This document shows positions 1 through 23,950 of a stretch of 40,414 nt of DNA, one piece after another. The notes beneath the pieces are model-generated. The model saw only the letters and a program-made list of their open reading frames with translations, did not search any database and was not told the DNA's origin. Location: positions 1-40,414 of the forward strand of contig JWZX01002443.1 in the NCBI GenBank assembly GCA_001275005.1, read 5' to 3'. Numbering within the stretch: the first letter of the stretch is position 1; each line of letters starts with the position of its first letter. The position numbers and the translations under genes are program-made. The DNA is from Chrysochromulina tobinii. Lineage: Eukaryota.

Positions 1-244
1 GGGGGTTTCTGAGGCATTGGGGGGACGTCGTGTTCGTAACACTATCACATCCCAAACAGAGCCCAACCGAGCACTGTGAAGCTGAGCCCATACTACAAGA
101 GTCCGGTGGTGCCTCATAGCAAACAACACAACGACAACCGAAGATTGACAAAATGTCGGTGGAGCCCGCCCATCTACGCTCGAACCCGCCCGCCAGCACG
201 GGCCCACTCCCCTATCACCCTCTGTCGCTCGCGCCAAAAACAGG

Positions 245-3200: not shown

Positions 3201-6200
3201 CGTGGCCTGCGGAGTGGAAGCCAGGGGCTGGAGGAAGTGGGTTCGCACACCGGTGTCGTACCTTGCTGACTTTGCTGCACTCGTGTGAATTGTGCGCCAG
3301 TGCCGGGTAATACCAAGATGTTCCTCAAGGCGGGCGCGCTTTCAAAGTTACGCGTACTGCGAGAGGAACACATCTTCAAGGGAACGAGAGGCATGCAGGT
3401 GCATTGCGCCTTTCGCGCGTGCTTTCGCGCCGCGCGCGCGCGCGCGCAAGAGTATTACCGAGCGAGCTGACGAGATGTGCGCGCCCACGACAATTACGGT
3501 TCGCCGAGCCCCGTCGCACCCTCAAAGGCTGTGGTACGTGGCATGATTGCTCGCAAGGAATATCGCGTGATGTGGGAGGAAGAGCAGGAGCGCAAACGAC
3601 GAGCAGAGGAAGATCGGAAACGCAAAGAGGAGGAGGAGCGGCTGCGCAAAGAGGAGGAGGAGCGCAAGCGAAGGGAGGAGGAGGAGGTGCGCGTCTCGCC
3701 CGCGCATGACTCGTCCCTGACCGCACGCCTGTCACTTTCGTGCGTCGCCGTCTCGCCCCTTTTGTGCGGGTACAGCTGGCTAAGCTGGCTGAGGAGGAAC
3801 GACTGCGCATTCTCGAGGACGAGCGTTTGCGGCGCGAGGCTGAAGCGCGTCAACTGCGCGAGGAGCAGGAGCGGCGACGGCAGGAGGAGGAGATGCATAG
3901 GCTCGCGCAGGAAGCCCTCGAGCGAGAGCGCGAAGAAGAGGAAGCGGCTCGCGCTGCCGATGAGTCCAAGCGACGTTTCCGCGAGCTGCGCGGCCTCGCC
4001 GAGATCGGCGCCCCATCGGATCTGCCTTCCGGCGGCGACGATGCCGCCGGTGCGGCAGGCAGTGCCACAGGCTTCAAGCTCGACATGGGCCGCGTCACGG
4101 GTGCTGCACAGAAGGCGGCGGAGCTCGAGCCCGACATGGCCAAATGGACTCCTCGTGCCAGACCCAAGGATGCGCCCAAACAGTCAGCACGCTACCAGAC
4201 AGACTTCAAAGCTCTGCCAGAGGATGTGCTTGAGTACGCTGTGTATCTCGGTATGGAGCCGACCGAAGACACCGATCTGCTGTGGATCGCCGAAGAGGCA
4301 CTCACCGCTGGCGAGCCGGATGGCTGGACAGAGCAGATGGACCCGAACGGCAATCTCTACTACTACAATGCGACCACAGGCCAGTCCTCTCGCCAGCATC
4401 CTCTTGACGAGTACTATCAGAACCTTTATCTCAAGCTCAAGATGCAGCGCACCATGGAGGTGGCTGGAATGGCCGTACCTGACGAGATCAAGAACCAATC
4501 GACCGCGCAGCTGACGACCGAAGACCTCAAACGGATGCGCGCCACCATGGCGGCGAAAATGGAAGGCGAGGCGTCCGTTCAGCAGCAGTCAGCGCCTGAG
4601 GAGGTTGCTTCTACTACCACGTCTATTTCGCAGGCTTTGTCGATGACGACGCCACGCTCAACGAAGATCATGTCAGAAAAGTTTGGGATCTCGCAGCCGG
4701 ATACCGACGTGCGCGCACTCCTGATCAACCCCGCAAAATGGGCGGAATCGCTTGCATACATCGACACCATCGTTGTGCGCGACACGTCGACGCCTCTGCT
4801 GCCGGCGTTTCACATGTACATGGTGCTCAACGAGACGTATAAGGCATTCGCGTTCTCCGCGGCCAAGCGTGTGGTTGCGCACAACACACACTACGCTGTC
4901 TCGCTCGACCACCTGGAGAACGGGCAAGCCTCGGAGGCCTTCTGCGGCAAGCTGCGCTGCAACTCGAAGGGTACTGAGTTTGCCATTTACGATGACTCGA
5001 ACGATCCGTATGGCCTCAAGACCGGCAAGCCACGACGTGAACTCGGCATCATCTCCTATAAGAAGAAGCTGCTCGGGCCGACCGAGCTGATCGTTGTGAT
5101 GCCCAGGGTGCGAAAGGACGGCGCATGCGCGCAATTCCGGCCATCGCAGCCAGAGGAGTCGATGATACAGCTCTTCAAAGCGGGCCGTGTTGAGCATATG
5201 TTCATCTTGCGTGGGACGGCAAACGTCGCGCCAGGGGGCATGGTCGAGCTCTTTCACAATGGGGCGCTCGGCTCGGGCACGGGCAAGGTCGTCTTCCAGG
5301 CTCACAAGCGGCCCGAGGGCGACTGGAGCGTCAAGTATATGCACCCACTCTCCTGTTTCCAGGCGTTCAATATCTGCATCTCCATCTTTCACAACCCGAC
5401 GACGGCCGGACTCGACGCGCTGCCAGCGGGCGAGCCGCGGCCGATGGTCCCTCTGACCGCCCAAACGACGGCGCCTGCCAGCGGCGCGCCCGGGCAGCCA
5501 GCCAGCGCTAAAAGCGAGCCGAAGAAGGAGGAAAAGGAGGACGCTACACGACCACCTCTCGCTGCAGGGGGCATTGAGCTTTCTGCCGCGAAGCCTGGCG
5601 CCATTATTAACACCGCATCGCTCGAGGGGCTCCCACACCAGGTATACTCGATGACTGTGCAGGGTGCGAAGGTTTACTCGGGACTGTACAATGGCTACAT
5701 TCAGGTTTGGCACATGGATGCGTACGTCAACCTCCCATCGGGTTCGCGGCCTGAGTACCACACTCTGACCGGGCACACGTCGTCTGTCTACGCGCTGGTG
5801 GTCTGCGAGCGCCAACTAATCTCGGCGTCGCATGACAAGCTCGTCAAGATATGGGACCTGAATACGCTCCGCTGCCGTCACACACTAAAGGGGCACAATT
5901 CGCGCGTGCGCGCTCTTGCCGTCTCCGGCAAGCTTCTGTTTTCCGGGTCGAACGACAAATCCATAAAAGTATGGAACCTCGAACTGGTCTCGCAGACACA
6001 GTCGCTGGAGTCTCACTCATCTTGGATCCGCGCGCTCGCCACGGAGAAAGACGTGTTAACATCTGCTTCCAAGGACAATACAGTCAAGGTGTGGGACCTC
6101 AAGAACATGAAATGCATCTTCACCTTTGCGTCAGGCTCCGAAGTGTACTCACTTGCGATGACCAATAATACAGTGTATGGTGGCTGTTTCGACCACAAGA

Positions 6201-6466
6201 TCCGAGTCTGGAACCTGAACACGATGCAAAAGTCGCACATGCTCATAGGCCACGAGGGTGTTGTGCGCTGTCTGACCATTCGCCATTCGACGTTGTACTC
6301 GGGCGGCTCGGATACCAAGCTGAAAGTGTGGGACTTGAAGTCCAACTCGTGCACCACGCTTTTCGGCCACACTTCCTTTGTCCGTGCCATCGCCGTGGAC
6401 GAGGCTGGCCAGACGCTTTACTCGGGAGCCGATGACAAGAAGATCAAAATCTGGCAAGCACGCTGA
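245..6466 (+). CDS. Unconventional myosin (motor, IQ, SAH, CEP164-like WW, Tubby C-terminal domain, WD40), ~1645 aa, 11 exons
   Basis: Manual splice model: 245-851, 1024-1126, 1267-1315, 1478-1561, 1662-1770, 1871-1984, 2107-2204, 2372-3197, 3301-3398, 3528-3686, 3776-6466 (4938 nt, all phases compatible). Motor motifs: GESGAGKT, NNNSSRYGK, TYLLEKTRV, LDIFGFE, EQLCINFTNEKLQ, HFVRCIKPN, QLRCSGVMEAVR, GNTKMFLK. IQ motif MQAVVRGMIARKEY spans intron 9. Confidence 0.92.
916..961 (+). repeat. 9-bp tandem repeat (TTCGGCGGC) x5 inside myosin intron 1
   Basis: Directly visible; it produces the spurious SAASAA/PPKPPK translations in the ORF track. Confidence 0.9.
4211..4430 (+). other. CEP164-N-terminal-like helical + WW module in the myosin tail
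   Basis: DVLEYAVYLGMEPTEDTDLLWIAEEALTAGEPDGWTEQMDPNGNLYYYNATTGQSSRQHPLDEYY follows the CEP164 N-terminal pattern (E..A..IG.DP..E..L.W.A.E...APLP..W.....G..YY.N...G.S..HP.D..Y), recognised from memory. Confidence 0.8.
4800..5392 (+). other. Tubby C-terminal-like domain in the myosin tail
   Basis: AAKR...THYAVSLD...FCGKLRCNSKGTEFAIYD...RRELGIISY...LLGP and the terminal SVKYMHPLSCFQAFNICISIF match Tub hallmarks (GKLRSN..GT.F..YD; Y.YPL...QAF.I..S.F). Confidence 0.85.
5620..6463 (+). other. WD40 beta-propeller (~7 blades) at the myosin C-terminus
   Basis: Repeated GH/SH...V..L......SGS.D..IKVW(D/N) units, e.g. LKGHNSRVRALAVSGKLLFSGSNDKSIKVWN. Confidence 0.93.
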
Positions 6467-6689
6467 GGCCATACAACGTTCAGTGTCAGCCAAACCCATT
6501 TACGTGTCTGGCCTGCTGAGGGTGCACGTGCTGGAGCACGTGGTGTGCCTTGCTCAAAGGAGAGTCAAGGTTGCTGGTGGTGGCCACTCACACAGTATCG
6601 TCTAACCAAGTACCAAAGGAGTAAGGTAAGTACGGAGGGGAAGAGGGTCAGCGGGTCAGCGACAGTTATGTTCGATATCGTGGAAGCTC

Positions 6690-7945
6690 CGGATCTCCTT
6701 CCTTTTTTGGAAGGATATATCCTTCCTTTTTTGGAAATCCCGTGACCCGTCCCACGTTCGCCGCCGTTCCTCCCTGGCATGATGTTTTCTCTTTTTGGAA
6801 AGCGCGCGCGCGATCCTCATGGATAGCGTCTGTTTGCATTGCGTTGCGCGATCCTCGCAGCATCTTGGTGGGTGAGTGGTGATGGCCAATGTCGAGACGA
6901 GACACAATGAATATACATTCTTAGGAAGCGGGTGCAGCAACCAGCATACGAACACATGACGCGTGTTGCACGCCGGTGTGAAACGAGATCCGACAAAAAT
7001 AATTTTCGAACTCCCGCAATGCGGGACCCCACTCGACTTTTCTCTCCTTCGCCCCACTCTTCTGCACAACGCCTTCAGCTGCCTCGCATGCACCGTATCC
7101 TCGAAGTCCTGTGGCAACACGGCGGCCTCGCTGTCCACTCTTTCCGGAGTGGCCGCAGTGGAGTGCTTGCTGCCTAGGTTTTCCACTGGTGCTTTGTTCT
7201 TGTTCGTAACCCACACGCAAGGCGTTCTCTAGCACATGAGCAACGACGAGCAGCGACGAACGCAAGACGTTCTCGAGCTTGAGCGTGGAGAACGCAAGAC
7301 GCTTGCGAGCGAGAGCCATCGTGATGAACGGTGAGTGAAGGGCTGTTGCAAGCATGGCGTTCTCTAGCATGAGCATGGGCCTCATCGATGTGCAGGAACG
7401 GTGGAACACTGTGATTTACCTGTGGAGACGTGGACGTCGCGAAGGGGGTGAGCCGCAAGCACGGCTGGGGCAGCATTCAGTGAGAGTGAAAGGTTTTCCA
7501 CTGGTGCTTTGTTCTTGTTCCCGCGCAGAGCTGGTCTGCGCGGGAACAAGAACGACGGGTGAGGAGTAGCACGCTGCGTGCGCACCGATCTATGCTCGGG
7601 GCATGACCTCCGCCGGAGCGTGCTCCTTGTTGGGCTTGAAGAGCTGCACCGATAGATACACCCCTCAACCCTATCCGCTCCCTGCCCGACGGCCGAGCTT
7701 TGAATTGCGCCCCTGGCGCCCCTGGCGCCCCTCTTTCCCCAAACTGAATAGTGAAGAAAGTTCCAAGATTTCCTCCCTTTCCCCAAACTAAATAGTGAGA
7801 AAGTTCCTAGACCTCCTAGCGCCCCCTGGGGCGTACCCCCTCGAGAAAAAGCACGGGGCGGTTTGTCGTGATTTCAACGTCATGGAATTTCGAGGGGGCT
7901 AGGATTACAATTCCGAAATTCCGGGATTTCAATTCCAAGTCCGCC
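6690..7945. repeat. Repeat-rich intergenic block, probable transposon remnant(s)
   Basis: CCTTCCTTTTTTGGAA at 6697 and 6721; identical 30-mer AGGTTTTCCACTGGTGCTTTGTTCTTGTTC at 7176-7205 and 7491-7520; perfect 19-bp hairpin 7511-7553; imperfect ~30-bp direct repeat TTTCCCCAAACT(G/-)AA(A)TAGTGA(A)GAAAGTTCC at ~7734 and ~7778. No transposase recognised. Confidence 0.55.
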
Positions 7946-8289
7946 CCTGCACTGTCGCCTCACCAACAAATATTCAAATTGTGCTGTGTATATCCACTGT
8001 GTCGCCTATACTGATATACTCAGTTTCATACGCCGAGAGCCTATACTTGATACTAGCCGAGAGATGCAAACGAACTACGAGAAAGACGCGCGCATTTCAG
8101 CGCGTACGGCTTCGGGCTCACCGCCCGAACCGCCATAGACCCTCCAGCGCCGCACACGCCCAATCCGGCTAAATCCGGCGTAAAGCTAAGCTGCAGACCG
8201 ACTGCGACGGGCGACGGGCTAAGCGCAGCGCCTCGCTGAGAATCCGGGCCCAGAATTCATTGAGTCGTTGCTGGGAGGACTGCTCTATC

Positions 8290-11200
8290 CTAGACGACAA
8301 CCCGGAGACCTGCGCCGCGCCCGGCGCTCTCGTCAAGCAAAGCATCGCCAGCGCCTCGCTCACCAGCCTCGCACTCATGCCAACCGCTGATTGGTGCGCG
8401 GCACATAGGGCAAGGTGGCATCGAGCTGGTCGAACGTGCCATCCAACCGTCAAGGCACTTTTTGCAAATCGAATGGCGGCACGGGTGCAAGATGAGGCCG
8501 CTAATCTTCAAGAGGCAGACCGGGCACTGTGGCAGTGTCGAGACGGCATCGGTCAGTTCATCAATCGTCGTCACGATTGGACGGAAGTTCTCATCGAGAC
8601 CGACGACCTGCTCCTGCCCGCCCGCAGTCGAAAGCTGGCCGGCGCGCCCGAGTGCCTCAAAGCAGCGCTGGTCGAGGGCATTGAAGCGCAGGTCCACGAA
8701 CGTAACCGACGTCGACTCGCCGAGCGCCGCGGCGAGCGCGAGGACGCCGTCGTAGTCGCGCCCGTAGCTCGTCAGCCCGTTCATTTGCAGCTCGAGGCCC
8801 GCGAGCTTCGTACAGGCGCGCACGCACGTGGCGAGCCCGCGCGCGCTCTGGCTGCCGAGACCGCACGCGACCAGCCGCAGCGACTCCAGCGCAGGCGCCC
8901 CTCCCGTACTGAGTGCCTGCAGCACCACGGCGCCACCCTCGTCCTTGAGCGCGTTCTTCGACAGATCGAGCTGGCGCAGCAGCATGTTGCGCTGGAGCGC
9001 CATCGCCATCGCGCGCACCTCTTCCCGCGTGAGGCTGTTCTGGCCAAGGGCGACCGAGGGCGCGACGCAGCATAGCTCGACGACCGCTCGCATCGCCGTT
9101 GGCCGGTGCCCCCCAATAGCCCCATGCAGATTAAGGCGCCCGTTGACCACTCGGGATCCCTCTAGCATGCCACTTGCGAAATCGGCACCCATCTCCGCGC
9201 CCAGCCGCAGCGTGTTCGCCCACCACACCGGCCAGCGCCACGGCTCGGCGGCGGAGGGCGGCAGCCGGTACGTGCGCGCACACGTGGCGCGCGCAGCAAA
9301 AAACTCCTGGAAGGAGAGATGCGAGAATTGCATCTCAAACGGGTCCGCCTGAAGCAGGCTAACGAGCGGCAGCCGGTCTTGCATGCAGCGCTCGCGCACG
9401 GCGCGTAGCGCGTCTTGCATCGCCTCGGGCAGCTCGGCGACGGCACAGTGCAGCGCGGCGCTGCGGGCACTCGCGCCGTACTGGCGTTCAAAGGCCTCCT
9501 TGCCCCACAGCCCAGTCGACTGCACGTCGTCGCGCGCGATCCACGCCGAGCGGGTGCCGCCGCCGGGCAGATCGATGAGTACATTGAAGGGCAGCTCGGT
9601 TGCATCCTCGTTCAAGATCAGGCCGTACGCGCCCCCATGCGCCCCTCGGAGCACCTGCACGTAGTGACCCACCTGAGCGCCCCCATCGTACGAGGGGCGC
9701 GTGATGGCCGCGAGACGCTCTGGAGACGCGAGCCCCACCGCCGCGGAGAGCAGGTGCTCCTCAGTGATGATACGCCGTTCCGCCGCGTGCGCCTGGAAGG
9801 CGGTGGCCTCGAGGAGCGCCGTCAGCTGCGCGATGGCAGCGGCTGACGCGGCGGCTCCACGTTCCCTGAGGTCGACGCGTGAGAGCATGGCCGACGACGC
9901 AGTCTGATAGAGCTCTGCGATGGTCGCTGGCATCGCCGCCAATGGAGGCATCGCGGTCCTGACGGCGCTGCTTCCGTTCTCGAGAGATGGCGGGGCCTGG
10001 GCCGCATGAGGCGCGTGGCGCGCCTCGTAGGCGGAGATGATCATCGAGAGCATCAGCGGGTTGCCTGTAGTCCGCTCGCCCGTCTCGTCATCAACGAGGA
10101 CGCGCTCGCACACGTACTGCCACAGCTCCTCAGCCCTTGCACGATCGCCGATGCGTTGCTCGATCACCTGCCGCTGCTGGTGATCGGAGAGTGGCCGTAG
10201 CACCATCGCATGGAACCCACGCTCAAAGATGGACCAATTGAAGCCCGCCGGCCGCGACGTGACGAGCATCACGTGTCCCTGTGGCGCGAGCACCTCCGTC
10301 ACGTGCCGCTCGATTTCCCGGCGTGCACGACCGCCCTCGTCGATGCCGTCGAGGATCACCAGGGCGCGGCGCGCCATCAAAGCTTGGCGCAGGAATAGGT
10401 AACGCTCCGAGCCCGCGCCGTGCGTGATGAGCAGGTAGGCGTCGACCCAGTTCCACATGCGGCCAAACACGGAGCGGTGCTCTTCCATCAGCAGTCGCCG
10501 TTGCAGTTGCTGCACCTTGATGGGCACCGGAATGAGCGAATCTGGGCGCTGCAGCATGTGCATGACTAGTTGCGATGTGAGACAGGTCTTGCCTGCGGCT
10601 GGCGGCCCCGTCAGCAGCACGCTCGAGCGCTCGCGCCCAGCGTCGTCTCGGGCTCCAGGCTGGGCGAGCCGCCGTGTGTACGCGCGGTGTAGCCATGCGC
10701 CGAGAGCGGCCACGTCACTCGAGGCAGCCAGGCTGACCACGTCATCCACGCCGTCCTCCTCAACCGCCGCAGCAAGTCCTGGGCCAAGTCCTGGGCCGAG
10801 CTCCCCCGCGTCATTCCTGTTCGGTTCTCCTCTTTCTTGACCATCATTCTTATTGGTGGTGCCTGCCTTGGTGGAGGTGGCACCGGCCGCTCTCGAGCAG
10901 TTGCCGCTGTCGTCCTCTGCGGCGGCTGCGGACTCGCCCAGAAGCTCCCACACGCCTGGCTCGAGATTGGATGGCCACGTGTGCCTCACCCAGCGCCAGC
11001 GCGTGCGCTTCTCGATTGGGTGCACACCGATCTCCTCGAGGCGCCGACGGCACGTTTCGGTGCACGCGTGCGGCGCGGGGAAGGGCTGCGTGCTCGTCGT
11101 TGCGACGTGCGGGCAGTTGGCGAACGCGACCATCACGCGCTCCCTGATCGCAGGTCCGGACCCCGTCGGGGCCGAGGCCGCGGGCGGCGCAGCTGGCACA

Positions 11201-14200
11201 CTTCCTTTCAAGGTGGGTGACGAACCACCGAGAATGGCACACGCAATCGGCACGCATTGCGCAAAGACGTCCAACCGCCGCCCACTGAGTGCGTCGACGA
11301 TGGACGAGTGTTGCGTCCGCAACGAGTGTTCCCAGCGCTGCCGCAAGGTCTCAAACGTAGCGCAGCCCATCTCCCGTGGTGTAGCGTTGAACGGGGTCAA
11401 GGAGAGGCTCACCTCGCGACCGGAGCGGCACAGCTGCAGCTTGTGCACCCAATTGAATGTGCACAGCTCGGCCTCTCCGGGCGGCTGCAAGACGTCGGCA
11501 TCCTTCCACTCCCCACCGTGGTACACCACGAGCGCCGCGCCCGTCTCGTACCGTCGCAAGCCGATCGCGCCACTGTCAGCCAGCTCAGCCGCGCATTCGG
11601 CCTCCAACGCGCACAGCGGGCTGGCCAAGGCAGCTTCGAGATAGGCGGCGCCACTCGACAGAGATGGGGCTACACTTGTGCTCGAGGTGTCGAACACCGC
11701 GAGGATCGAACGCATCTGATCACGGTACGTCCCCTCGATAAGCTGTTTGCCACAAGCCGTGCGCATGCGCTGCGGGAGCTTCATGAACTCGGATCGCGCC
11801 TCTTTGGTACGATGGCGCGCTTGGTAGACCTGCTCAAGTGCGCGATCAAGCAGCTCGCGCAGCCATGCCGAGCTCACCTTGTGCTGCTGCGAGCGCATCT
11901 GCTCGACTATTCGCTCGACACTCGCATCTAGCTCACGATGGTCTATCGTAGATTCCGTGCCGGTGAGCACGCCAGCGGGAGGCCCAGGAAGCAAGGAAGT
12001 CAGCCCACGCATCGTTCGCAGTGCCGCCCCGTCACCTTTCGCGTGTTTGATGACTGCCGCAAGACGGCTGGTCGGCGCAGGAGGTTGCCCTTTTGAAACC
12101 GTGCCCGGCGCCCAGTTACCCAAACCCGCAGTACGGTCGGCCGGCATCGGCCGCCACGGAAGCACGCGCTGGCTGCAGTTGTCAAAGCTGCAGCGTGGAC
12201 CCGCGCCCGTCGCCACCAGCAACTCGGAGGTGGGCGCGTCGAGCAGAGAGCGCTCTGGACGACTCTCCAAGTCCAAGTCGACCCCGTCCAAGTGCGTCAC
12301 TGCGAACTGCGTCTGACCTTCACCGCCTCGAAGTCGGCCGTCCGCATCGAGCAGCATCAAAAGGGGCTGGCCGGAAGCGAGCTGAAGCCCGTGGGCAGGC
12401 CCAGCCACCCCCTCGGCGCGTGTGATGAGGCGTGGCGGTGGGCGAGCGAGGCTCGCACGAATGGACACCGCGCACCGCCGTGCTATCCACCACGCGAGCC
12501 GCTTCTGTGCCACGGAGAGGTTGACGAAGTGCATCGAGGCTAGAGTGCGCTCGAGTAAGGGCATCAGGAAGTGGCACGAGTGCGTGTCCGCTTCGACGAC
12601 CGTTGCCTTGGGGACGCCACGCGACGCCGCACGTTCAGATTCGACACAGCGAGAGACGAGAGCGCTGGCTTGCTTCACAATAGTGCTCGCCAGCCGCAGA
12701 GCGAGCTGCGCGTGCGCTGGCCAGGAGGCCGGTGGCTCGCGTGTGCCCATCTGAGACAGCTCAGGCGGAAGCCCCGATACTGGAGCCAGAAACGCATCCG
12801 CAATGACAAGGGCCTCTCGCAAGCGTTCGTGCACCTCTTCGCGCTCGGCCACGCGTCTCAGTGAAGGGGATAGCTCAGTGTCGGCGGCCAGCGTCTGGCA
12901 GAGGTCACTTACGTGTGTGCACCGAACCAACGCAGCGTGCCACCGCGCCGCTGCTTGCATCGAGAGCCCGAACACAAGCGAGAGGCTTGCTGGGTCGAGA
13001 GCCCTCGCTTCTTCCAGCGTCAGCGGCAGAGGCAGCGTCTCCACGAAGATGCTCGAGATGAGCGCCGCAGCATCGTCGAATGGATTGGCTGCTCGCTCCG
13101 CCGGCGCTTCCAGAAGCCACAGGGATCCGTGTACATCCAAGATCACGTTGGCTGCGTGCAGGTTGGCGTGCTGGTGCGTCTGCAGCGGCCTCCACTTGGA
13201 CAGCCATGGCGGCGCCCACGGGCGCTGCGTGGAATGGTCACCGAGGGCGTGCGCTTTGAAACCGTGCGCACTCGTGGATGAGGGCGTGGACGATGAGTGG
13301 AAGGGAGATGACAGCGCTGGCTGTGATCCACGCTGCGCTGGGCCTCCGCTGCCTCCGCGCTGCGTAGCCACAGCCGCGAGGGATCCGTTGCCTGAAGCCG
13401 CCACAGGGCGCGAGCTGGCGCGACCAATATCCCGCGGCGTCAGCCCACCCGGCACGCCAGCCGCAGATTGACGCCCACCCCTCGGCGTTGCTTGGGCGCT
13501 CTTGTCGCATCCGTGGCCCCGTTCGGCCCCTCGAGGCGTTGCACAGGCAGCCTTGGGGACTTCGAGCTGCGTGGGAAAGGGCTCACCATCCGGACTGCTG
13601 CTGTGGCGCAGCGCGTGGCGGAGCGCTAGGTCAAAGTCCCACAGCAGCGAGCGCAGCAGCGTCATCGCGACCACCGCTTCGCAACCAGTGGCGGCCTGGA
13701 AGCGCTCCACTTTGTCCCGCTGCACGCTATCCAGGTCGCTCATCGGCACGTGGCTCATCGGGGCGTAGATCGATCGCATCTCCTTCTCCCACTTCTGCAA
13801 CACTGATGGCGATGTCGGCGACGGTGGTGGCGGCAACAGCAGCGATGGATGGGCAACCGGCGAAGGGGGCATCTCTGCGCTGCCATTGGGGGCGCCACCA
13901 GCGTCAGGCCTATTGGATTGCAAGCAGCTATGGAGAAATCTCATGAGCTCGACCAGTGGAGAGACGTCGAGGCTTTCCAGCTCCTCCAAGACCCAAGAGC
14001 TTGGCTGGTTCGAGCTACCCCGAGATCCGCTACGAGGAGTGGCGGCGCCACGGGGTGTCTTCGACTCGCCGCCGACGCAAGCGGTGCTGATCGCTGGAGA
14101 CGACGGCATGAAGGGCACTGCCGGCGCTGCGGCTTGCGAACTGCTGGCGCTGGCACTTGTGTTCGCCCTGGAGACATTACACACCGCAGCCAATACGAGA

Positions 14201-15936
14201 CTGTTCACGAAGCGTTGCTGACGCCCCATCCCGCCTGTCGGCTCCTCGGCGGGCAGGATGCCATCCGTGGTCAGCTCTCGCAAGCAGCCGAGCAGAGTAG
14301 CGGATGGCGTGTAGCTAGCAGCACGAGCAAGGTCTTCGTGCACTGGAGCGCGCGGCACAAACGCGTCGGCACACAGCGAGGCCACCGAAGCGAGCGATCG
14401 GCGCACCCAGCCGTGCCGAGCATCGTCCGCGGGTCGCTCGTCACGCGTTGCTGTGCGCATTGCGAGGGTGCACAGCGGTCCGCCCGGCCCCCATAGGTTG
14501 CGCACTACGGAGGTGGCGTCGTCGGCAGGCGCAGAGGCGCCACTGCTGAGAAGCTTGCTTAGATGATCGTGGAATGTGTAGAAGAGGTGGTTACAGAAGA
14601 GGGGCCCACTGCCGCCATCGGCATTGAAGTTGGGAAGCACCCAGCACGCGCCCGCCAGCTCGAACACGATAGCTCCCAGCGCCCCTCCCACGGGATCTCC
14701 TCCCAAGGCGGCCCCTCCCACTGAGTCCGTCTCGTCTTTGCCAGCTGCGAGCGCACCCGCAGCACTCAGCGCGACACCACGCGCGTCGACGTAGAGCGGC
14801 CCGCGCAGCAACTGCAGCGTGTGCTCCGACCCCAACATCTGAGAATGTGACTGAGTGCGCTCGGCCTCCCGGGCGGCCTCAGCTGCAGCCTCGATCTTAG
14901 TGATCGTCGGATCTTGCCGCCGGCCGTGCGCGTCGTAACCCTCTGTGCGAAGCAGGAGCGTCCCGCTCGAGAGGACACCACGCTCGCTCAGCGGTGCGAT
15001 CACGACGCGGGAGCAGCCTGCAAATAGCGACTCGATGAGCCGCTCGTGTGCACGCCGCAGCTCAAGCCCGGCATGCAACACGAGCGTCACCTGCGGCGGG
15101 GCAGCGGCGGTAGACGCAAGGGCAGCAGCGTCGACTGCAACGTTGCCAGCCGCTGCAGGAGCCACGCCCTCTCTCGTGCTCGCGTCGGCACCTGCGCCGA
15201 GCGCGACAGCAGCTGCTGACCTATCGGCGGGCGGCTCGGGATTGGATGCGATGGCAGTCGCGGGAAGCGGCAGCGTGGGTGGCGGTGGATCGACGGCGAT
15301 GCATAGCGGCGCGCTCATCAGCCCTGAAGCATGCGCATCGAATGTGGGCACATGCAGCGGCTCCACTGGCGCCAGGTCCGAATGCGGTGGGGTCGGACAC
15401 TGAACACGCAAAGCAAGGGGCGCCATTGCCGTTCGCTCTTCTGTCGCAACGACCGAGGCTGCGGACGCATCCTTCTCTGCAAGGGGGAGAACGAGAGCGC
15501 CATCGCCATCGCTGTTACCGCCAACTAACTCGCGAGCTGCTGCCGGATCAGCGACGGAGAGCGAGATGGCCAGCAGAAAATCGGAATCGCTCTCCGAATC
15601 TGCTGGCAGCACAGGAGCATCAGCAGCTCGTTTGGTGCTCAGGGGCTCCTCCTCTGAATCAGACAAAGTGGCCGGGCTTTCTGTGCTGCGATGGGGTGCT
15701 GGCCTGGCCTCTTTGATGGGCGACGGTGACGGCGCCCTCTGGCGCCGAGTGGGTGGCGCTGTTGCTGCTGCTGCCGTGGCTGTGGCTGTGGCTGTGGGCA
15801 TCCGCCGTTGCCCCGCCGCCGCTGGGCAGGCAGTGCGCCTCGAGTTTGGCCGGCTACCACCAGCTGGATCTGCATTGGACGATGGTGGTATTCGCAGCGG
15901 CGGCGTGGACGATGGTGATCGCCGGGACCTCGACAT
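8290..15936 (-). CDS. NLR-like STAND protein: UIM-like, degenerate kinase-like (split by a UBA-like insert), NACHT, LRR, C3HC4 RING (2548 aa)
   Basis: Uninterrupted ORF. Walker A LLTGPPAAGKT (~10586-10609), Walker B LVILDGIDE (~10336-10363), LVTSRP, GNPLMLSMI, winged-helix FSHLSFQEFFAA (~9293-9330), RI-type LRRs (LRQLDLSKNAL, LAGLELQMNGL, VTFVDLRFNAL), RING CPVC...PCRHSICKKC...CPMCR (~8396-8530). Start codon is uncertain because the N-terminus is low complexity. Confidence 0.88.
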   Translation of the reverse strand: MSRSRRSPSSTPPLRIPPSSNADPAGGSRPNSRRTACPAAAGQRRMPTATATATAAAATAPPTRRQRAPSPSPIKEARPAPHRSTESPATLSDSEEEPLSTKRAADAPVLPADSESDSDFLLAISLSVADPAAARELVGGNSDGDGALVLPLAEKDASAASVVATEERTAMAPLALRVQCPTPPHSDLAPVEPLHVPTFDAHASGLMSAPLCIAVDPPPPTLPLPATAIASNPEPPADRSAAAVALGAGADASTREGVAPAAAGNVAVDAAALASTAAAPPQVTLVLHAGLELRRAHERLIESLFAGCSRVVIAPLSERGVLSSGTLLLRTEGYDAHGRRQDPTITKIEAAAEAAREAERTQSHSQMLGSEHTLQLLRGPLYVDARGVALSAAGALAAGKDETDSVGGAALGGDPVGGALGAIVFELAGACWVLPNFNADGGSGPLFCNHLFYTFHDHLSKLLSSGASAPADDATSVVRNLWGPGGPLCTLAMRTATRDERPADDARHGWVRRSLASVASLCADAFVPRAPVHEDLARAASYTPSATLLGCLRELTTDGILPAEEPTGGMGRQQRFVNSLVLAAVCNVSRANTSASASSSQAAAPAVPFMPSSPAISTACVGGESKTPRGAATPRSGSRGSSNQPSSWVLEELESLDVSPLVELMRFLHSCLQSNRPDAGGAPNGSAEMPPSPVAHPSLLLPPPPSPTSPSVLQKWEKEMRSIYAPMSHVPMSDLDSVQRDKVERFQAATGCEAVVAMTLLRSLLWDFDLALRHALRHSSSPDGEPFPTQLEVPKAACATPRGAERGHGCDKSAQATPRGGRQSAAGVPGGLTPRDIGRASSRPVAASGNGSLAAVATQRGGSGGPAQRGSQPALSSPFHSSSTPSSTSAHGFKAHALGDHSTQRPWAPPWLSKWRPLQTHQHANLHAANVILDVHGSLWLLEAPAERAANPFDDAAALISSIFVETLPLPLTLEEARALDPASLSLVFGLSMQAAARWHAALVRCTHVSDLCQTLAADTELSPSLRRVAEREEVHERLREALVIADAFLAPVSGLPPELSQMGTREPPASWPAHAQLALRLASTIVKQASALVSRCVESERAASRGVPKATVVEADTHSCHFLMPLLERTLASMHFVNLSVAQKRLAWWIARRCAVSIRASLARPPPRLITRAEGVAGPAHGLQLASGQPLLMLLDADGRLRGGEGQTQFAVTHLDGVDLDLESRPERSLLDAPTSELLVATGAGPRCSFDNCSQRVLPWRPMPADRTAGLGNWAPGTVSKGQPPAPTSRLAAVIKHAKGDGAALRTMRGLTSLLPGPPAGVLTGTESTIDHRELDASVERIVEQMRSQQHKVSSAWLRELLDRALEQVYQARHRTKEARSEFMKLPQRMRTACGKQLIEGTYRDQMRSILAVFDTSSTSVAPSLSSGAAYLEAALASPLCALEAECAAELADSGAIGLRRYETGAALVVYHGGEWKDADVLQPPGEAELCTFNWVHKLQLCRSGREVSLSLTPFNATPREMGCATFETLRQRWEHSLRTQHSSIVDALSGRRLDVFAQCVPIACAILGGSSPTLKGSVPAAPPAASAPTGSGPAIRERVMVAFANCPHVATTSTQPFPAPHACTETCRRRLEEIGVHPIEKRTRWRWVRHTWPSNLEPGVWELLGESAAAAEDDSGNCSRAAGATSTKAGTTNKNDGQERGEPNRNDAGELGPGLGPGLAAAVEEDGVDDVVSLAASSDVAALGAWLHRAYTRRLAQPGARDDAGRERSSVLLTGPPAAGKTCLTSQLVMHMLQRPDSLIPVPIKVQQLQRRLLMEEHRSVFGRMWNWVDAYLLITHGAGSERYLFLRQALMARRALVILDGIDEGGRARREIERHVTEVLAPQGHVMLVTSRPAGFNWSIFERGFHAMVLRPLSDHQQRQVIEQRIGDRARAEELWQYVCERVLVDDETGERTTGNPLMLSMIISAYEARHAPHAAQAPPSLENGSSAVRTAMPPLAAMPATIAELYQTASSAMLSRVDLRERGAAASAAAIAQLTALLEATAFQAHAAERRIITEEHLLSAAVGLASPERLAAITRPSYDGGAQVGHYVQVLRGAHGGAYGLILNEDATELPFNVLIDLPGGGTRSAWIARDDVQSTGLWGKEAFERQYGASARSAALHCAVAELPEAMQDALRAVRERCMQDRLPLVSLLQADPFEMQFSHLSFQEFFAARATCARTYRLPPSAAEPWRWPVWWANTLRLGAEMGADFASGMLEGSRVVNGRLNLHGAIGGHRPTAMRAVVELCCVAPSVALGQNSLTREEVRAMAMALQRNMLLRQLDLSKNALKDEGGAVVLQALSTGGAPALESLRLVACGLGSQSARGLATCVRACTKLAGLELQMNGLTSYGRDYDGVLALAAALGESTSVTFVDLRFNALDQRCFEALGRAGQLSTAGGQEQVVGLDENFRPIVTTIDELTDAVSTLPQCPVCLLKISGLILHPCRHSICKKCLDGWMARSTSSMPPCPMCRAPISGWHECEAGERGAGDALLDESAGRGAGLRVVV

Positions 15937-16142
15937 CGGTTTCCGTCGTGGGCCAGGCTCGGGCGTCCAGCTCCTTGATGCCCTCTACTAGTAGTCGCGC
16001 AGGCTCCTCTCTTTTCCGCGAGAGTGTGAATCAAGGAGTGAACATGTGAATGGAAACTCGCCCGCAGCTGTCGTTAGGATAACACGTTCATGAATCCTTG
16101 GCATCCTCTGACGAACCGCCCACCACGGCGCTCACGGCAAAA

Positions 16143-17449
16143 ATGGCGTCACGGACACGGCCCATACGCTTCCGAACAACGTTCCGCAACACCATCTACG
16201 ACCTCTTCAAGTCGAAAGGATGGACCGAGACCGAGAGCGACACTGACTGGGATGTGGCATGGGTCGACAAGGACTGGATCCGAGAAAACTTTTTGCAGCA
16301 GACGCTTGCCGACCACCAGCGCATCAATCACTTCCCAAACCATTATGAACTCACACGCAAGGACAACCTCATCAAGAATCTCAAACGCACGCAGCGCGCA
16401 CTCCAGCGCGAGGGTCTGGTCGACGAGGCGGCCCGGTATGATTTCTTCCCCGGCACGTGGTTACTGCCGGCCGACTATGGCCTCTTTGTCGAAGAGTTCA
16501 AGAACTACCCTTCCGGCACGATCTGGATCATGAAGCCCACCGGCAGTGCGCAGGGCAAGGGCATCTTCCTCTTCACCCGGCTGCAGCAGATCAATGACTG
16601 GAAGAAGGACAGCGGCTGGAAGACCGACGCCGCTCAGGCCGCATCGTACGTTGTGCAGCGATACATTGAGAATCCGCAGCTCATCGGCGGCAAAAAGTTC
16701 GATCTGCGGCTCTACGTGCTCGTCACGTCTTACAACCCGCTCACGGTCTACATCTACCGCTCAGGCTTCGCGCGCTTCTCATCGTACCGTTACAATACGA
16801 CTAAAGCCAACCTGAGCGACACGTATGTTCACCTGACAAACGTGGCGGTACAGAAAACGGGCCCTGGCTTCGATGCGGGTGCGGGGTCCAAGTGGCCACT
16901 GCGCAACTATCGCCTGTTCCTCGTAGGCAAGTACGGGCATCAGGCGACAGACCGCATGTTCCTCGACGTTGAAGAACTCTGTGTGAACACGCTACTCTCT
17001 GTGCAGAAGGTGATGATCTCGGACGTCATCTGGCTGATTGCCTCCCTCATCTGTCTGATTGCCTCCCTCATCAGGTGATGATCTCGGACAAGCACTGCTT
17101 CGAGATGTACGGCTACGACATCCTGATCGACGAGACGCTCAAGCCGTGGCTGATTGAGGTGAACGCGTCGCCTTCCATCACCGCGGACACCATCCAGGAC
17201 TACGACCTCAAGTTTGGGCTGCTCGAGGACGTGTACAGCGTCGTCGATGTGGAGCAAAAGCTCGGCCACGGTGTGGATGGGCGGCCGCTCGAGCCAACCG
17301 TCGGTGGCTTCGACCTGATCTACCACGGCGAGAAGGTTCGGCCCGATCGCCAGGCGACGTACACGTCTAAGCTAGGTTGCTTTGACCCGGCCGATCGGCA
17401 ACGAGGCTTGAGAAAGCTGTGGGCCAGTGTTGGTGCGACCGGCAAGTGA
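16143..17449 (+). CDS. TTLL9: Tubulin polyglutamylase, TTLL9-like (413 aa; exons 16143-17009 and 17075-17449)
   Basis: TTL motifs INHFPNHYELTRKDNLIKNLKR, WIMKP...AQGKGIFLF, YVVQRYIENP.LIGGKKFDLRLYVLVTSY, HLTNVAVQK, CFEMYGYDILID..LKPWLIEVNASPS, VGGFDLI. Removing the GT-AG intron 17010-17074 restores VQK|VMISDKHCFE. Confidence 0.9.
17008..17089 (+). mobile_element. Introner-like 65-nt intron (17010-17074) flanked by a 17-bp direct duplication
   Basis: AGGTGATGATCTCGGAC occurs at 17008-17024 and 17073-17089. The interior is two copies of a 21-bp unit TCATCTG(G/T)CTGATTGCCTCCC followed by TCATCAG. Confidence 0.7.
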
Positions 17450-18407
17450 TCGCACGAATGAGTCCGGAGTCCGGAGGCCCGCGGGGCGCGGGCCACGCAA
17501 CAAGCCGTGTGCGTGCTTAGCGTGTGTGGCATAGGCCACAGCACACGGCAGGAGTCGCGCCGAGTCACGGTGCAGGAGCGTGTGTTCTCGGGGCCCGGCA
17601 TCGCAATAATGTTGATCTCGCGACGTGGAGCGGCGCGGGCGCGCGGAGTGCCGAGTGCCGGATTCAGGCCGGAGAGCGACGAACGCGACGGACCGACGAC
17701 GCGGACCGGATGGACGGCGGGAAGTACACGCAAGTGTACGGCGCGGACGCCGGGGGCTGCTTGAGGCGGGACAGGCGAAGCAACCGAACCCCAACAGGGG
17801 CCGTCACCTTCGCCACTCCGCCACTCCGCGGCGACTACCAGCATCTGTACCGCTGCCTGCTCTGGCTACACGGCACTAACACGGTACACATGCGATGAAC
17901 GCATGTAGCTACAACCTACATAGATCGCACGTCCTACAAGCTTGTCAGCTAACGTCGATAACCTGTTAATCTCAGGTTATAATATATATATATTATATAA
18001 AGAGAAAAGACGTGCTAATACCTCCGCGCCCGCGGCCCGGACGGGACGCACCGCATAGACCCGAACTTGTAGTTTTGAACTTATCGCTTTCGCCTTTCGA
18101 TAGGCGCAGCGGCCGCGGGGAACCAGGGTCCTGGGTCCATAGATAGGTCCCCAACCGGGAGGCGATGAAAAGCGGACTCACACTCACACCTCTTTAACAC
18201 CTCGTCGTATCTTCGGTATGATTCGTTTGTCGAATTCGTTTGTACAGCCTCGCCACGTGCCTTCCGCCTTCTTGCTTCTCGCTTCTGTTCCCCTTCTATA
18301 GTTCTCCTCTCGCGCTCAGACTCGAGTCACCACCTCTCGCTATCTCTCGAACTTTCCAAGTCTCCATCATCTCTGCTCTCGCCCTCGCGCGTCGCTCCTT
18401 ATTTGCT

Positions 18408-19688
18408 CTACATGTACGGCGGACTCCCGGATCGAGCTCTTTCCGGTTTGAAGCCCGCCTCGATCATTTTGAGCATTGGACGCTGATCGATCTGCATCAA
18501 TTGGAGCTGTTTTTGGCGATCCTCTAGGCCTGCGCGGATGTCATTCTCGTCGAGCTTGCCTGATGCGTCTGAGTCCAGGGCCTCAAACAGCTTGACGAAC
18601 ATGTCAACGTCCTCCTGCTTGACAGCGTCGAGCATCGTGAGCATACCTATCACGAACTCGAACTGGTTCACGCCGTCTCCGTCCTTGTCGAGGCTCATCA
18701 TCAGGTCCACGTCGAGCGAGCCCTTAACCATGTCCATCTTGCGGAGCGCCTCCTGTCGGGCCTTGCTGAGCTCGCTCACGTCGCGTACGCTGGCGGCCAG
18801 AATCGACACCGAGATGGCGATGTGGAAGAAGGCCCACATGCGGCCCCCGTCACTTGCGATCTTCACATCGCCTAAGCCCACAGTCGTCATAGTCACGCAA
18901 CAGTGGTAAATGGCGCTCCCAAAGTCCCAGCCTTCAATGGCGCAAAAGACCTGGGCGAACAAGCACTGGATGGCCACGATACAGATGAACGGCGCAATAA
19001 GGTTCTTAGAATAGTAGTAGAGTGGCTTCCGTGGCACTTTGAAGTCCTCGGTGCCGTCGCCGTCGATGTCGACACCCGATTGCGGGAACCAGCGCTCAAG
19101 AGCCGCACGAGACGAAATGTACATCGGCTTGATGCCCTTGGCAACCAGTGCAGAGAGCTTGGCAAACACGACGATGATACCGAAGAAGATGTACACGAGA
19201 GTGAACATGCGGCTCCCCGGGACGCTTGGGTCCGGATATAGGTCGCCGTAGCCCACTGTGGCTGCGGTCACCATCAAAAAGTAGAGGCTCTGCCAAATAT
19301 TCCAGCCCTGCAGACTCATGTAGAAGGCAGATCCCGTGCCAAAGTAGATGCAGCACCACAGTAAGCAAGCGGCGATTTCTTTCCCCAAGGCATGCATCGT
19401 TTGTCGTGGCGGCCCTAGGGTATTAAGCTCTAGGCTTGGCTGTGGTGGCACAGGCGCCACGAGCGCTGCTGGCGGCATCACAGGACGCGGCGCCCGTGCT
19501 CGTGCGGCCGAGGTCATAGCCACTGGCGATGAAGCTTGGACTTCATGCTCATCTTGTGGCGGTTCCGGAGGCCATTCGTGCTGTTTGTCCAGCCATAGCA
19601 CTTGCACTCTTTGTGCCGCAGGTGCCTTCTCAGGGGCGCTGCGCGTAGAGCGAGGCGCCGCCATCGCCAGAGACGGTGCGTCGACCAT
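18408..19688 (-). CDS. Two-pore-domain K+ channel (TPK/K2P-like) with C-terminal EF hands
   Basis: Pore loops SLYFLMVTAATVGYGDLYP and AIYHCCVTMTTVGLGDV, four hydrophobic helices, EF-like loops LDKDGDGVNQFEF and LDSDASGKLDENDI. Confidence 0.9.
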   Translation of the reverse strand: MVDAPSLAMAAPRSTRSAPEKAPAAQRVQVLWLDKQHEWPPEPPQDEHEVQASSPVAMTSAARARAPRPVMPPAALVAPVPPQPSLELNTLGPPRQTMHALGKEIAACLLWCCIYFGTGSAFYMSLQGWNIWQSLYFLMVTAATVGYGDLYPDPSVPGSRMFTLVYIFFGIIVVFAKLSALVAKGIKPMYISSRAALERWFPQSGVDIDGDGTEDFKVPRKPLYYYSKNLIAPFICIVAIQCLFAQVFCAIEGWDFGSAIYHCCVTMTTVGLGDVKIASDGGRMWAFFHIAISVSILAASVRDVSELSKARQEALRKMDMVKGSLDVDLMMSLDKDGDGVNQFEFVIGMLTMLDAVKQEDVDMFVKLFEALDSDASGKLDENDIRAGLEDRQKQLQLMQIDQRPMLKMIEAGFKPERARSGSPPYM

Positions 19689-19878: not shown

Positions 19879-20626
19879 AGGACGCTGAGAGTGTAGCAGA
19901 GAGAGGCCGGACGGCGACGGCGCGGGCGGCGGCAGCAGCGAGGCCGGACGAGTGCTCGTCGCGGCATCGCGAAGAGGAGGTGCAAGCGCAGCCATGGAGC
20001 GCAGCAGGCAGAAGAACAGGGGTCAGCGGCAGGCGATGGCTAGGTTTGACCGACGACTGGCGGCGGATGACGCGAGCGTGAGCTGAGCTGAACGGTGCGA
20101 GGGCGAGGGTTCCGAGTCTGTGTTGCTCACGCGACTGCGGGACGGGCCCTCTCCCTTGTGCTGGTCATCTCGGCGAGCGTGACGCTGCGCCGACCGGCCT
20201 CGAGTTCCCCGGTCGAGGCGCCTATGTCTCCCTCTTTCTCTCCCCCAATCCCCCTCTCTCTATCTATTCTCTTCGATCTCTAGCTGTACTCTGAGGGCAC
20301 GCAGGCTAGCACCCTGTGGCGTGTCTCCTCCTGGTCTCCTTCCCGTTCGTGCTCCTTCCGTTGTGTCCTCACCATCTCCGTCGACTCTCACCCCCACTGC
20401 TAGCCTCGAGAGCACATTCGATAGGCTTCCGTTAGGTTGTCTGTTGTTTATGCAGTAACTGAACTTAGCTAAAAAAGGAGGGGGTGGCTGCAGAGTTCCA
20501 AGAAGCCTGGAGTGCAGCCCGCGGCGTGCATGCATATTTGGCGTTCTTTGTTTGTAATTATCCACAAGAATCTCGCCTGAAGAATCTCTCGCTGGGGCTC
20601 CGGAGACTGCGACCGACGACGGGATA

Positions 20627-21691
20627 ATGGACGGGATGCCGCGTGGGTGGACGATACTGGCCTTTTTTTCGGCGTTCGTATGTGTGGGCGCACTACAGCC
20701 TCCTCCGGCTCCGCGCCGCGCTGCTGCACGCACCACCGCCGCGATCAAACGGAAGAGCACCCTGAACGACCTCGACCCGACTCTCCAGAAAGCCGGACTT
20801 GCGTCGGCCCCGCGCGAGGCGACAGCATACCGGCTCAACCCGCAGCAGACGGCGGTTATACGCATCGCTCTTACCGGTGGCCCATGCGCAGGTAAGTCCA
20901 GCTGCCTCGCCCACATCACGGAGACTGCGTCGGCGGCGGGCTTTGACGTTTACCGCAGCCCTGAGACGGCGACGGTGCTCTTCAACGCCGGCGTGCAACT
21001 GCCTCTTGGCGATGTGGAGGGGATGTTCCAATTCCAGTTTTCCCTCATGCGCCTTCAGCTGGCCGTTGAGCGCAGCCTCACTAGGATCGCCGCTTCCACT
21101 GGGCGGCCCTCGATCATCATCTTTGACCGCGGCTTGCTCGACCCCAAAGGCTACATGGACGAGGCGACGTGGGCGCGCGTACTGAACGAATTGGACAGCA
21201 CGTACACGGACACTGGCTTCGTGAAAAAGGGCGTGACAGAATCTTATCTCCTCAACCGCTATGACGGAGTGCTTCACATGGTGACGGCAGCCGACGGCGC
21301 GACCGAGTACTACAAGTACGGCACGGTCAAGGACGATTCGGGCAATGTGGTGATCCGGCATGAGACGCCGGAGAAAGCGGTTGCGCTGGACGTCAAGATG
21401 CGCGAGTGTTGGAAAGCGCATCCCAATCAGCAGGTGGTGGGGAATGGTCAGGGCGGCTTTGGCGAAAAGCTTGAGGCTGCGGCGGCGGTCGTGCTCGGAT
21501 TGGCCAAGAAGACCCACCCGGTCGAGTTTGCCATGGCGGGAAGCCGAACTAAGCAAGAGGAGCTGGAGGCGCGAGCCATGGCGGCGGAGGAGCGCGCCAC
21601 GGCGGCGGAGGAACGTGCCATGGAGGCAGAGGTGCGTGCGAAGGAGGCCGAGAAGGCGCTCGACGACGTGCGACGAGCGAGGAGCGCGTGA
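20627..21691 (+). CDS. NadR/Ttd14-type (AAA_28-like) P-loop NTPase with N-terminal signal peptide and C-terminal coiled coil
   Basis: RIALTGGPCAGKSS, YRSPETAT, IIFDRGLLD.KGY, RYDGVLHMVTAADGA, RHETPEKA..LD, W..HP are typical of TRPL translocation defect 14-like proteins. Hydrophobic leader WTILAFFSAFVCVGA. Confidence 0.85.
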   Translation: MDGMPRGWTILAFFSAFVCVGALQPPPAPRRAAARTTAAIKRKSTLNDLDPTLQKAGLASAPREATAYRLNPQQTAVIRIALTGGPCAGKSSCLAHITETASAAGFDVYRSPETATVLFNAGVQLPLGDVEGMFQFQFSLMRLQLAVERSLTRIAASTGRPSIIIFDRGLLDPKGYMDEATWARVLNELDSTYTDTGFVKKGVTESYLLNRYDGVLHMVTAADGATEYYKYGTVKDDSGNVVIRHETPEKAVALDVKMRECWKAHPNQQVVGNGQGGFGEKLEAAAAVVLGLAKKTHPVEFAMAGSRTKQEELEARAMAAEERATAAEERAMEAEVRAKEAEKALDDVRRARSA

Positions 21692-23714: not shown

Positions 23715-23950
23715 TCCGAGCGTTCGTCGAGACCGTGAATAGACGTGAGCGTCCACAGCAAGGAGTTTTGACAGTCAACATTTGCCCACAAAAGGTGCAA
23801 GCCATTTCTGTTCACACCACGCGTCCGACTCGTTTCCCACGAGAATTGGGCCACCGGTCCGGTCGGCATACATGCCGCCGGCCAGCACCTCGCCCAGGGC
23901 CAAAGTGCCACCGCTCTCTCCCGGCAAGGCTGCCTTTGAAAAGAGCGCTG

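Follow-up and report, generated by a model that had tools for sequence, protein, structure and literature searches.

Does a haptophyte alga possess a receptor of the nucleotide-binding, leucine-rich-repeat type (NLR) that carries its own ubiquitin ligase? This question is raised by a frame of 2,548 codons on the reverse strand of contig JWZX01002443.1 of Chrysochromulina tobinii (assembly GCA_001275005.1), the first 40,414 nucleotides of which form the window analysed here. A preliminary description had proposed that a NACHT domain and leucine-rich repeats (LRRs) of the ribonuclease-inhibitor type are followed by a C3HC4 RING, and that the same protein holds a ubiquitin-associated (UBA)-like domain and a ubiquitin-interacting motif (UIM). 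The alga transcribes a gene for a single 2,548-residue protein, in which an NLR-type nucleotide switch is combined with a RING, with a UBA-like domain and with a kinase fold that has lost its catalytic residues. From the N-terminus the order is UIM-like motif, kinase fold split by an insert bearing the UBA-like domain, pre-NACHT domain, NACHT, winged helix, LRRs and RING (Table 1).

The frame is complete in two other metagenome assemblies (L001 and L002), in which all 7647 bases are found at 99.5% identity with neither gap nor stop. A further copy, L004, was not counted as independent since it is 100% identical and may come from the same strain. The ratio of non-synonymous to synonymous changes was 17:16 in L001 and 20:16 in L002; these changes cluster in low-complexity parts, and selection was not read from them. 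RNA contigs tile the frame, and no splice joint lies inside it. Over positions 1-17600, four RNA runs showed 11 joints, 9 of them read as GT..AG and all located in neighbouring genes, from which it follows that the libraries contain spliced RNA. Where a single run left part of the frame uncovered by RNA, no intron was assumed. The 14 RNA runs carry a common year and habitat label, possibly reflecting one campaign.

The public gene model of this locus, KOO29265.1 / Ctob_003295 (660 aa), is identical to residues 1794-2445 of the long frame. It begins after Walker A, leaving out the first 1793 residues and the RING, and it implies a 74-base GT..AG intron. That the fusion is an artefact of this intron or of read-through across two genes, the RING-less model being the main product, appears very improbable. 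It would agree with the implied intron, with the lack of a single RNA contig across the entire frame, with the loss of rare forms in contigs, and with the product of the relative P0117, which ends at residue 1644 in unrelated sequence. However, in at least four RNA runs single ungapped contigs extend from 7981-7993 to 8691-8762 (best 32 of 76 pieces) and pass through the RING and the stop codon as well as the supposed intron. The RING, on which the preliminary description had built its sensor-plus-ligase reading, is thus kept in the transcripts. The supposed intron is moreover conserved as coding sequence, since 29 of 34 linker residues are identical in P0140, an orthologue fragment of 80% identity that holds LRR, linker and RING in one chain. 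The public model's start after Walker A also speaks against this alternative. Altogether, the intact copies, the ungapped RNA and the lack of splicing in splice-bearing libraries favour the long frame over the public model.

At the C-terminus, residues 2470-2517 match RING profiles above the Pfam cut-off (PF13920 with 32.9 bits compared to 27, E 5.6e-8; PF13639 and PF00097 also above). All eight C3HC4 zinc ligands are present (C2471, C2474, C2486, H2488, C2491, C2494, C2509 and C2512), and the RING helix holds a tryptophan, which we take to be the position contacting the ubiquitin-conjugating enzyme (E2). R2513 is an arginine at the n+1 linchpin position, as defined after the last RING ligand in the available text of PMC7667886. 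In the RING of P0140, 36 of 46 residues are identical, and all eight ligands and the linchpin arginine are kept. We consider it probable that the RING is an active ubiquitin ligase (E3).

The second component is the nucleotide switch. The motifs GPPAAGKT, DGIDE, TSRP, GNPLM and FSHLSFQEF, which correspond to Walker A, Walker B, sensor-1, GxP and the winged-helix motif, are intact and all agree with the family consensus. The Pfam score for NACHT amounts to 17.6 bits for the whole protein and 21.8 on the segment, compared to a cut-off of 26.7 that is exceeded by the NACHT of close relatives such as P0003 and P0019. Of the two profile matches foreseen in the preliminary description, that of the RING was therefore obtained, whereas NACHT stayed below the cut-off and the NLR fold was recognised by Foldseek instead. 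A model of residues 1745-2525 with a mean predicted local distance difference test score (pLDDT) of 85 had NOD2 as its top match (E 9.5e-15); NLRPs and NLRC4 came next. Among the matches listed every one was an NLR or an NLR-containing complex, at whole-chain template-modelling scores of just 0.2-0.3. In its fold, the modelled NACHT-LRR part resembles NOD2 and the NLRPs. About six repeats are seen in the model, and LRR_6 reached 29 bits on the segment (cut-off 23.4); counts from a home-made LRR profile were not used, as it under-counted the repeats (one in the present protein). The small beta-rich insert at residues 2085-2140 occurs in 86 of 216 family proteins and has no Pfam match. The proposed succession of NACHT, ribonuclease-inhibitor-type LRRs and C3HC4 RING thus holds within one intact frame.

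For a death-fold or BIR effector, no Pfam match was obtained at E 0.1 with the whole protein, residues 1-279 and 1301-1744 lying outside the models; as modelled, the N-terminal region is a kinase-like fold and not a death-fold or BIR. This largest N-terminal domain had been missed in the preliminary description, whose account of the N-terminus was incomplete. Residues ~290-1165 model as a single kinase-like fold in two halves. The best VIA matches were maltokinase (Z 12.6, root-mean-square deviation 4.2, 302 aligned), glucosamine kinase and aminoglycoside phosphotransferases (APH), and all 50 matches listed are kinase-like going by their titles. Foldseek gave nothing at E 0.001 for the kinase model, though kinases ranked first. 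Both halves align by BLAST to the relative P0010 (E 2e-26 for the first half, 7e-47 for the C-lobe), which passes Pfam TCAD9 and whose top match in the Atlas is a cluster of bacterial TCAD9 (0.96); the present protein itself has no TCAD9 match. Going by alignment columns, the beta-3 lysine K347 is kept and the glycine loop is altered. Among 28 family proteins with a kinase C-lobe, HGD is found in 17 and the second aspartate in 25, whereas the present protein keeps neither. Since HAN and E943 replace both catalytic aspartates, the domain is predicted to be a pseudokinase. Just before the catalytic loop, the anchor-to-anchor length is 262 in the present protein and 272 in P0117, compared to 24-61 in 24 of 25 other rows (one row without cover), and the UBA-like domain sits inside this insert of ~230 residues.

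Between kinase and NACHT, a pre-NACHT domain is shared by 126 of the 128 family members having at least 250 aa upstream of NACHT. It has neither a Pfam match nor an Atlas match at 0.9; SET clusters (Atlas 0.87, low recognition) were treated as noise. The adjoining Cys/His-containing segment (residues 1595-1644) has no Pfam match, and 47 of its 50 residues are kept in P0117. At residue 1644 (window ~11005) the match to P0117 breaks, the relative ending 11 residues further on in 13 of 13 cluster members compared, which may reflect an intron, a frameshift or a split gene.

A UBA-like resemblance had been noted at the place where the segment cut around this stretch reaches 22.7 bits with UBA_4 (PF14555; cut-off 21.8, whole protein 15.9), and it stands, marginally. 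Four of six PDB sequence matches, at weak E-values of 0.03-1.3, are to FAM100B, p47, FAF1 and OTUD7A, entries that we take to be UBA-like domains. P0117, which is ~91% identical over residues 109-1644 and comes from a related species, keeps 40 of 41 UBA residues, compared to 88-89% in the flanks. A UBA-like domain is thus probable from its sequence, if marginally so; ubiquitin binding is not universal among such domains. For the proposed UIM, place and pattern fit were confirmed, whereas profile support was not obtained: residues 100-145 matched no Pfam family, even at E values as high as 5, and gave no relevant PDB match. The arrangement acidic-hydrophobic-xx-A-xxx-S-xx-acidic, presumably the UIM pattern and formulated after the motif was seen, fits residues 114-130, 19 of 5000 shuffles and 0 of 212 other family proteins. 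In P0117 the motif is kept at 15 of 15 residues and the following linker at 74%. Since only the pattern fits, the UIM is regarded as a resemblance rather than as a profile-confirmed domain.

Table 1. Features of the NLR-like gene (window positions; residues refer to the 2,548-residue product)
Feature	Position	Strand	Basis and remarks
Coding sequence, 2548 aa, apparently intronless	8290..15936	(-)	ATG 15936 to stop 8290, one uninterrupted frame
UIM-like motif, residues 114-130	15547..15597	(-)	Match to the UIM pattern alone; kept in P0117
Kinase fold, first half (N-lobe and helices), APH/TCAD9-type, residues 283-600	14137..15090	(-)	Model, VIA, BLAST, alignment
Low-complexity insert of ~230 residues within kinase fold, just upstream of catalytic loop	13222..13914	(-)	Alignment anchors
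UBA-like domain (p47/FAF1/UBALD type), residues 738-778	13603..13725	(-)	UBA_4, PDB matches, P0117
Kinase C-lobe, residues 905-1165	12442..13224	(-)	BLAST to P0010, alignment
Catalytic-loop change HGD to HAN	13147-13170	(-)	Alignment; second aspartate (DF) replaced by E943
Pre-NACHT domain, family-wide, residues 1452-1580	11197..11583	(-)	Present across the family
Small Cys/His-containing segment, residues 1595-1644	11005..11154	(-)	Seen only in the orthologue line of the present protein
NACHT NTPase, residues 1770-1975	10012..10629	(-)	Motifs, model, Foldseek
Walker A, GPPAAGKT	10585-10608	(-)	Matches family consensus
Walker B, LVILDGIDE	10336-10362	(-)	Matches family consensus
Small beta-rich insert in helical part of NACHT module, residues 2085-2140	9517..9684	(-)	Strands in model
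Winged-helix/HD2 region with FSHLSFQEF motif, residues 2190-2265	9142..9369	(-)	Motif, model, Foldseek
About six ribonuclease-inhibitor-type LRRs, residues 2266-2436	8629..9141	(-)	Model and Pfam
74-base GT..AG intron implied by public model	8527..8600	(-)	Reconstructed; would shift the frame and remove the RING; crossed ungapped by at least four RNA contigs
C3HC4 RING, residues 2471-2512, with linchpin R2513	8398..8526	(-)	Pfam, ligands, P0140
Probable 3' untranslated region	7981..8289	(-)	Contigs from at least four RNA runs, possibly of one campaign, stop at 7981-7993

The protein belongs to a large family. Among clusters of 50% identity, its NACHT-LRR-RING part finds 242 representatives with E values of 1e-30 or lower, and a second search gave 75 long relatives, one of which is an unrelated fish NLR; the few family members with a visible species name are from Chrysochromulina. 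Pfam scans covered 54 relatives (24 + 30) picked for kinase content or long tails. Tpt1/KptA, NUDIX, C2, RRM, EF-hand, SPRY, Vint with Fic, PUB with OTU, F-box, PH and ankyrin repeats were found as added domains, several of these matches lying below the cut-off, and a subset of the family shares the TCAD9-type kinase. Domain shuffling, which the preliminary description had proposed to look for in haptophyte genomes, is thus observed in the scanned relatives. Among gene calls on contigs, P0074 shows PUB with an OTU-like domain, P0035 Vint with Fic, P0144 Tpt1/KptA with an intact TCAD9 kinase, P0065 an F-box and P0242 ankyrin repeats with SPRY; a near-copy of P0074 is present in Chrysochromulina parva.

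The RING pattern was found in 13 of 279 proteins, namely twelve near-copies of the present protein and P0140, and within the same set the UBA and UIM segments match only the clusters of the present protein and of P0117. Judged on these sequences, RING, UBA and UIM would have appeared only in this orthologue line. Many of the 279 proteins are incomplete, the winged helix being reached by 175 of 216 representatives, so further RING fusions may have escaped notice. A quick, midpoint-rooted tree was built from the 118 of 216 rows with all three core domains; the order of events lies outside its scope. All 19 kinase-bearing rows fall into one unresolved group, in which the present protein stands on a branch of its own, and kinase decay across the tree requires four changes. 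Viral contigs showed no relative of NACHT or of linker and RING in a scan that is weak because exact 8-residue words were needed. PADLOC gave one trivial P-loop match and NCBIfam none for the present protein. With the LRR-RING part of P0140, a search of longer proteins retrieved a single LRR protein, which is unrelated and has no RING; this is weak evidence. Residues 280-1300 retrieved only 2 proteins; since more such relatives exist, this search is insensitive.

Taken together, we tentatively prefer, at somewhat less than even confidence, the explanation that the protein is an NLR-type NACHT-LRR with its own RING, presumably a nucleotide-gated ubiquitin ligase, in which ubiquitin writing and reading would have taken the place of an ancestral kinase output. 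If it works as NLRs do, NACHT would be kept closed by the short LRR, and nucleotide exchange and oligomerisation would follow once a trigger is sensed by the LRR, the dead kinase or the beta insert. Clustering activates some RING ligases; by analogy, oligomerisation could bring the RINGs together, so that chains would be built on a bound target or on the complex itself, the UBA-like and UIM-like motifs holding ubiquitin or ubiquitinated cargo. The main reason to assume that RING, UBA and UIM probably work together is that three motifs occur at three separate sites in one orthologue line. A gating of the ligase activity by NACHT, drawn by analogy, is slightly on the probable side. A role in defence is the least supported step and is judged slightly less probable than not. 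It is favoured by the family, which on sequence evidence seems to shuffle conflict-type domains (TCAD9, Tpt1/KptA, NUDIX, Fic, Vint, SPRY, PUB with OTU, F-box). The closest lead in the literature is the up-regulation, in virus-recovered Gephyrocapsa huxleyi, of a NACHT gene that may or may not belong to the present family (PMC12489294).

A number of observations weigh against this explanation. In the models RING and UBA-like domain are of low confidence (pLDDT from the 40s to ~60, below 50 for the RING) with two alignment rows over each. The segment on which UBA_4 passes, marginally, was chosen afterwards, and the missing profile support for the UIM has to be added. Since P0117 (UIM and UBA) and P0140 (RING) are separate partial records, all three are shown together in one species only. 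The LRRs, identical to P0140 at 130 of 170 positions, do not look arms-race-like; the array is short and without amino-acid change in L001 and L002, which a conserved regulator would fit equally well. More widely, no amino-acid change occurs past residue 1902 in either assembly, at variance with a classic fast-evolving sensor. The protein also lies outside a 33-row, short-branch, recently expanded and kinase-free clade, a position that a conserved regulator could occupy no less than a sensor. In an NLR wheel, a RING placed behind the LRRs would sit at the rim and not at the hub. Finally, the kinase has decayed in 6 other tree rows showing neither RING nor UBA, and kinase loss therefore need not be tied to the gain of ubiquitin functions. 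Of the preliminary proposal of a sensor and E3 in one protein, the NLR fold and the intact-looking RING are borne out, whereas short LRRs, sequence constancy and the lone branch do not fit a fast-evolving sensor. Of the outcomes named there as refuting, none was observed.

Several of these points would be expected if an active RING served upkeep instead of defence, ubiquitinating the protein itself or cellular partners in receptor turnover or non-immune quality control. We consider this unlikely: while NACHT, LRR and RING diverge slowly and evenly, the branch is lone, the LRR array short and RNA present in cultures without known infection, the protein is kin to a fast-shuffling family rich in conflict-type domains, and the relatives of its N-terminal kinase match bacterial TCAD9 proteins. 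Alternatively, RING, UBA, UIM and dead kinase could be integrated baits: NACHT would be tripped when they are contacted by a pathogen protein directed against kinases or the ubiquitin system, the signal passing via the pre-NACHT domain or a partner NLR. The retention of every catalytic hallmark of the RING across 20% divergence, and add-on domains that are conserved and not diversifying, make this quite unlikely, even though the add-ons differ among family members at both ends of a near-constant pre-NACHT domain, kinase decay recurs in several branches and bacterial conflict systems often contain inactive kinases (PMC7159879). Compared with the preferred explanation of a NACHT-gated ligase, a more specific version appears rather unlikely, namely an NLR effector swap in one haptophyte lineage: a conflict-type kinase related to bacterial ones would have lost its activity and received a ubiquitin reader as an insert, and a RING would have been added behind the LRRs, so that a single-chain pathogen sensor would ubiquitinate its ligand upon NACHT oligomerisation. 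If true, the NLR would be its own E3, within a large undescribed algal NLR family with interchangeable enzymes.

Further genes were observed in the window. A spliced RNA contig of 5153 bases links myosin motor exons to a frame with WW, Tubby and WD40 domains at 3710-6466; 244-6680 (+) is a myosin-WW-Tub-WD40 fusion gene. Downstream of the NLR-like gene, 6686-7966 is repeat-like, and many RNA contigs exit the window at 7962-7966 and 6686-7164. Head to head with the NLR-like gene lies a gene of the tubulin-tyrosine-ligase family (16148-17449, +), the start codons being ~210 bases apart. Its intron at 17008-17072 (+) opens with a copy of the first bases of the next exon, and several RNA contigs are loose-ended at 17034-17055; the intron sequence seems to recur elsewhere and is possibly a mobile-intron-like repeat. 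At 18408-19688 (-) a two-pore-type ion-channel frame with weak EF-hands is found, and at 20558-21691 (+) an AAA_28 P-loop frame. The 3631-codon frame at 23498-34393 (+) has no Pfam family above the cut-off and a weak EF-hand near its end.

In the literature searched, mostly outside subscription papers, no description of the present family or of a NACHT-LRR-RING protein was found. NLRs of plants with integrated RING domains may be published; the search found none. Haptophyte NACHT-LRR proteins may be listed in the surveys of Urbach and Ausubel 2017 and of Richter and Levin 2019. A term search for NACHT, NLR and leucine-rich was negative in the available main text of the C. tobin genome paper (PMC4580454). 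Since the public model drops Walker A and RING, the gene has remained hidden as a NACHT-plus-ligase gene. It offers a concrete, testable candidate for a NACHT switch with its own ligase, in a field where, according to the available text of PMC12489294, antiviral mechanisms of bloom-forming microalgae are underexplored. If the RING is gated by NACHT, this would be a direct NLR-to-ubiquitin output, undescribed in the literature searched. The wider family comprises hundreds of representatives among which kinase, Tpt1, Fic, OTU, SPRY and F-box domains are exchanged. It has the look of an NLR-like repertoire not yet catalogued, and its importance may exceed that of the RING-bearing member.

Compared to the animal NLRs NOD2, NLRP1/3/7/9 and NLRC4, the protein shares order and fold of NACHT, winged helix and ribonuclease-inhibitor-type LRRs at 10-16% sequence identity, a likeness of fold and order that need not mean common descent of the whole architecture. 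It differs by its ~six LRRs, the N-terminal dead kinase of small-molecule type and the RING after the LRRs, and CARD, PYD or BIR were not detected. With the Chrysochromulina proteins Ctob_003240, Ctob_005463 ('Protein nlrc3') and Ctob_003295 it has pre-NACHT domain, NACHT clade and LRR type in common, whereas RING, UBA-like and UIM-like motifs are confined to its orthologue line. C-terminal add-ons and kinase effectors are already known in NLRs. The preliminary description had called NLR effectors normally N-terminal, a rule that needs qualification: in the accessible text of PMC12436146, teleost NLR-C with B30.2 and NLRP1 with FIIND-CARD carry domains after the LRRs, as here, but these add-ons are not ubiquitin ligases. 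Fungal PKinase-NACHT proteins likewise have a kinase at the effector position (PMC4986451), but these kinases are listed as PF00069, and LRRs are absent from NLRs of fungi. The kinase fold itself recalls the bacterial TCAD9/APH-like kinases of ternary conflict systems, given its matches to maltokinase, glucosamine kinase and APH and the TCAD9 match of its relatives; APH-like kinases are named as effectors in the available parts of PMC7159879 and PMC8195603, which do not use the term TCAD. In contrast to these, the kinase fold of the present protein has lost both catalytic aspartates, is interrupted by 230 inserted residues and forms one chain with a eukaryotic NACHT-LRR. A parallel to a sensor with its own RING is offered by the TRIM-type ligases, which combine recognition domain and RING in one chain (PMC8195603, in the part available). 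Compared to these, the present protein has no B-box, coiled coil or SPRY, and its assembly would instead be driven by an NTPase of the STAND (signal transduction ATPases with numerous domains) class.

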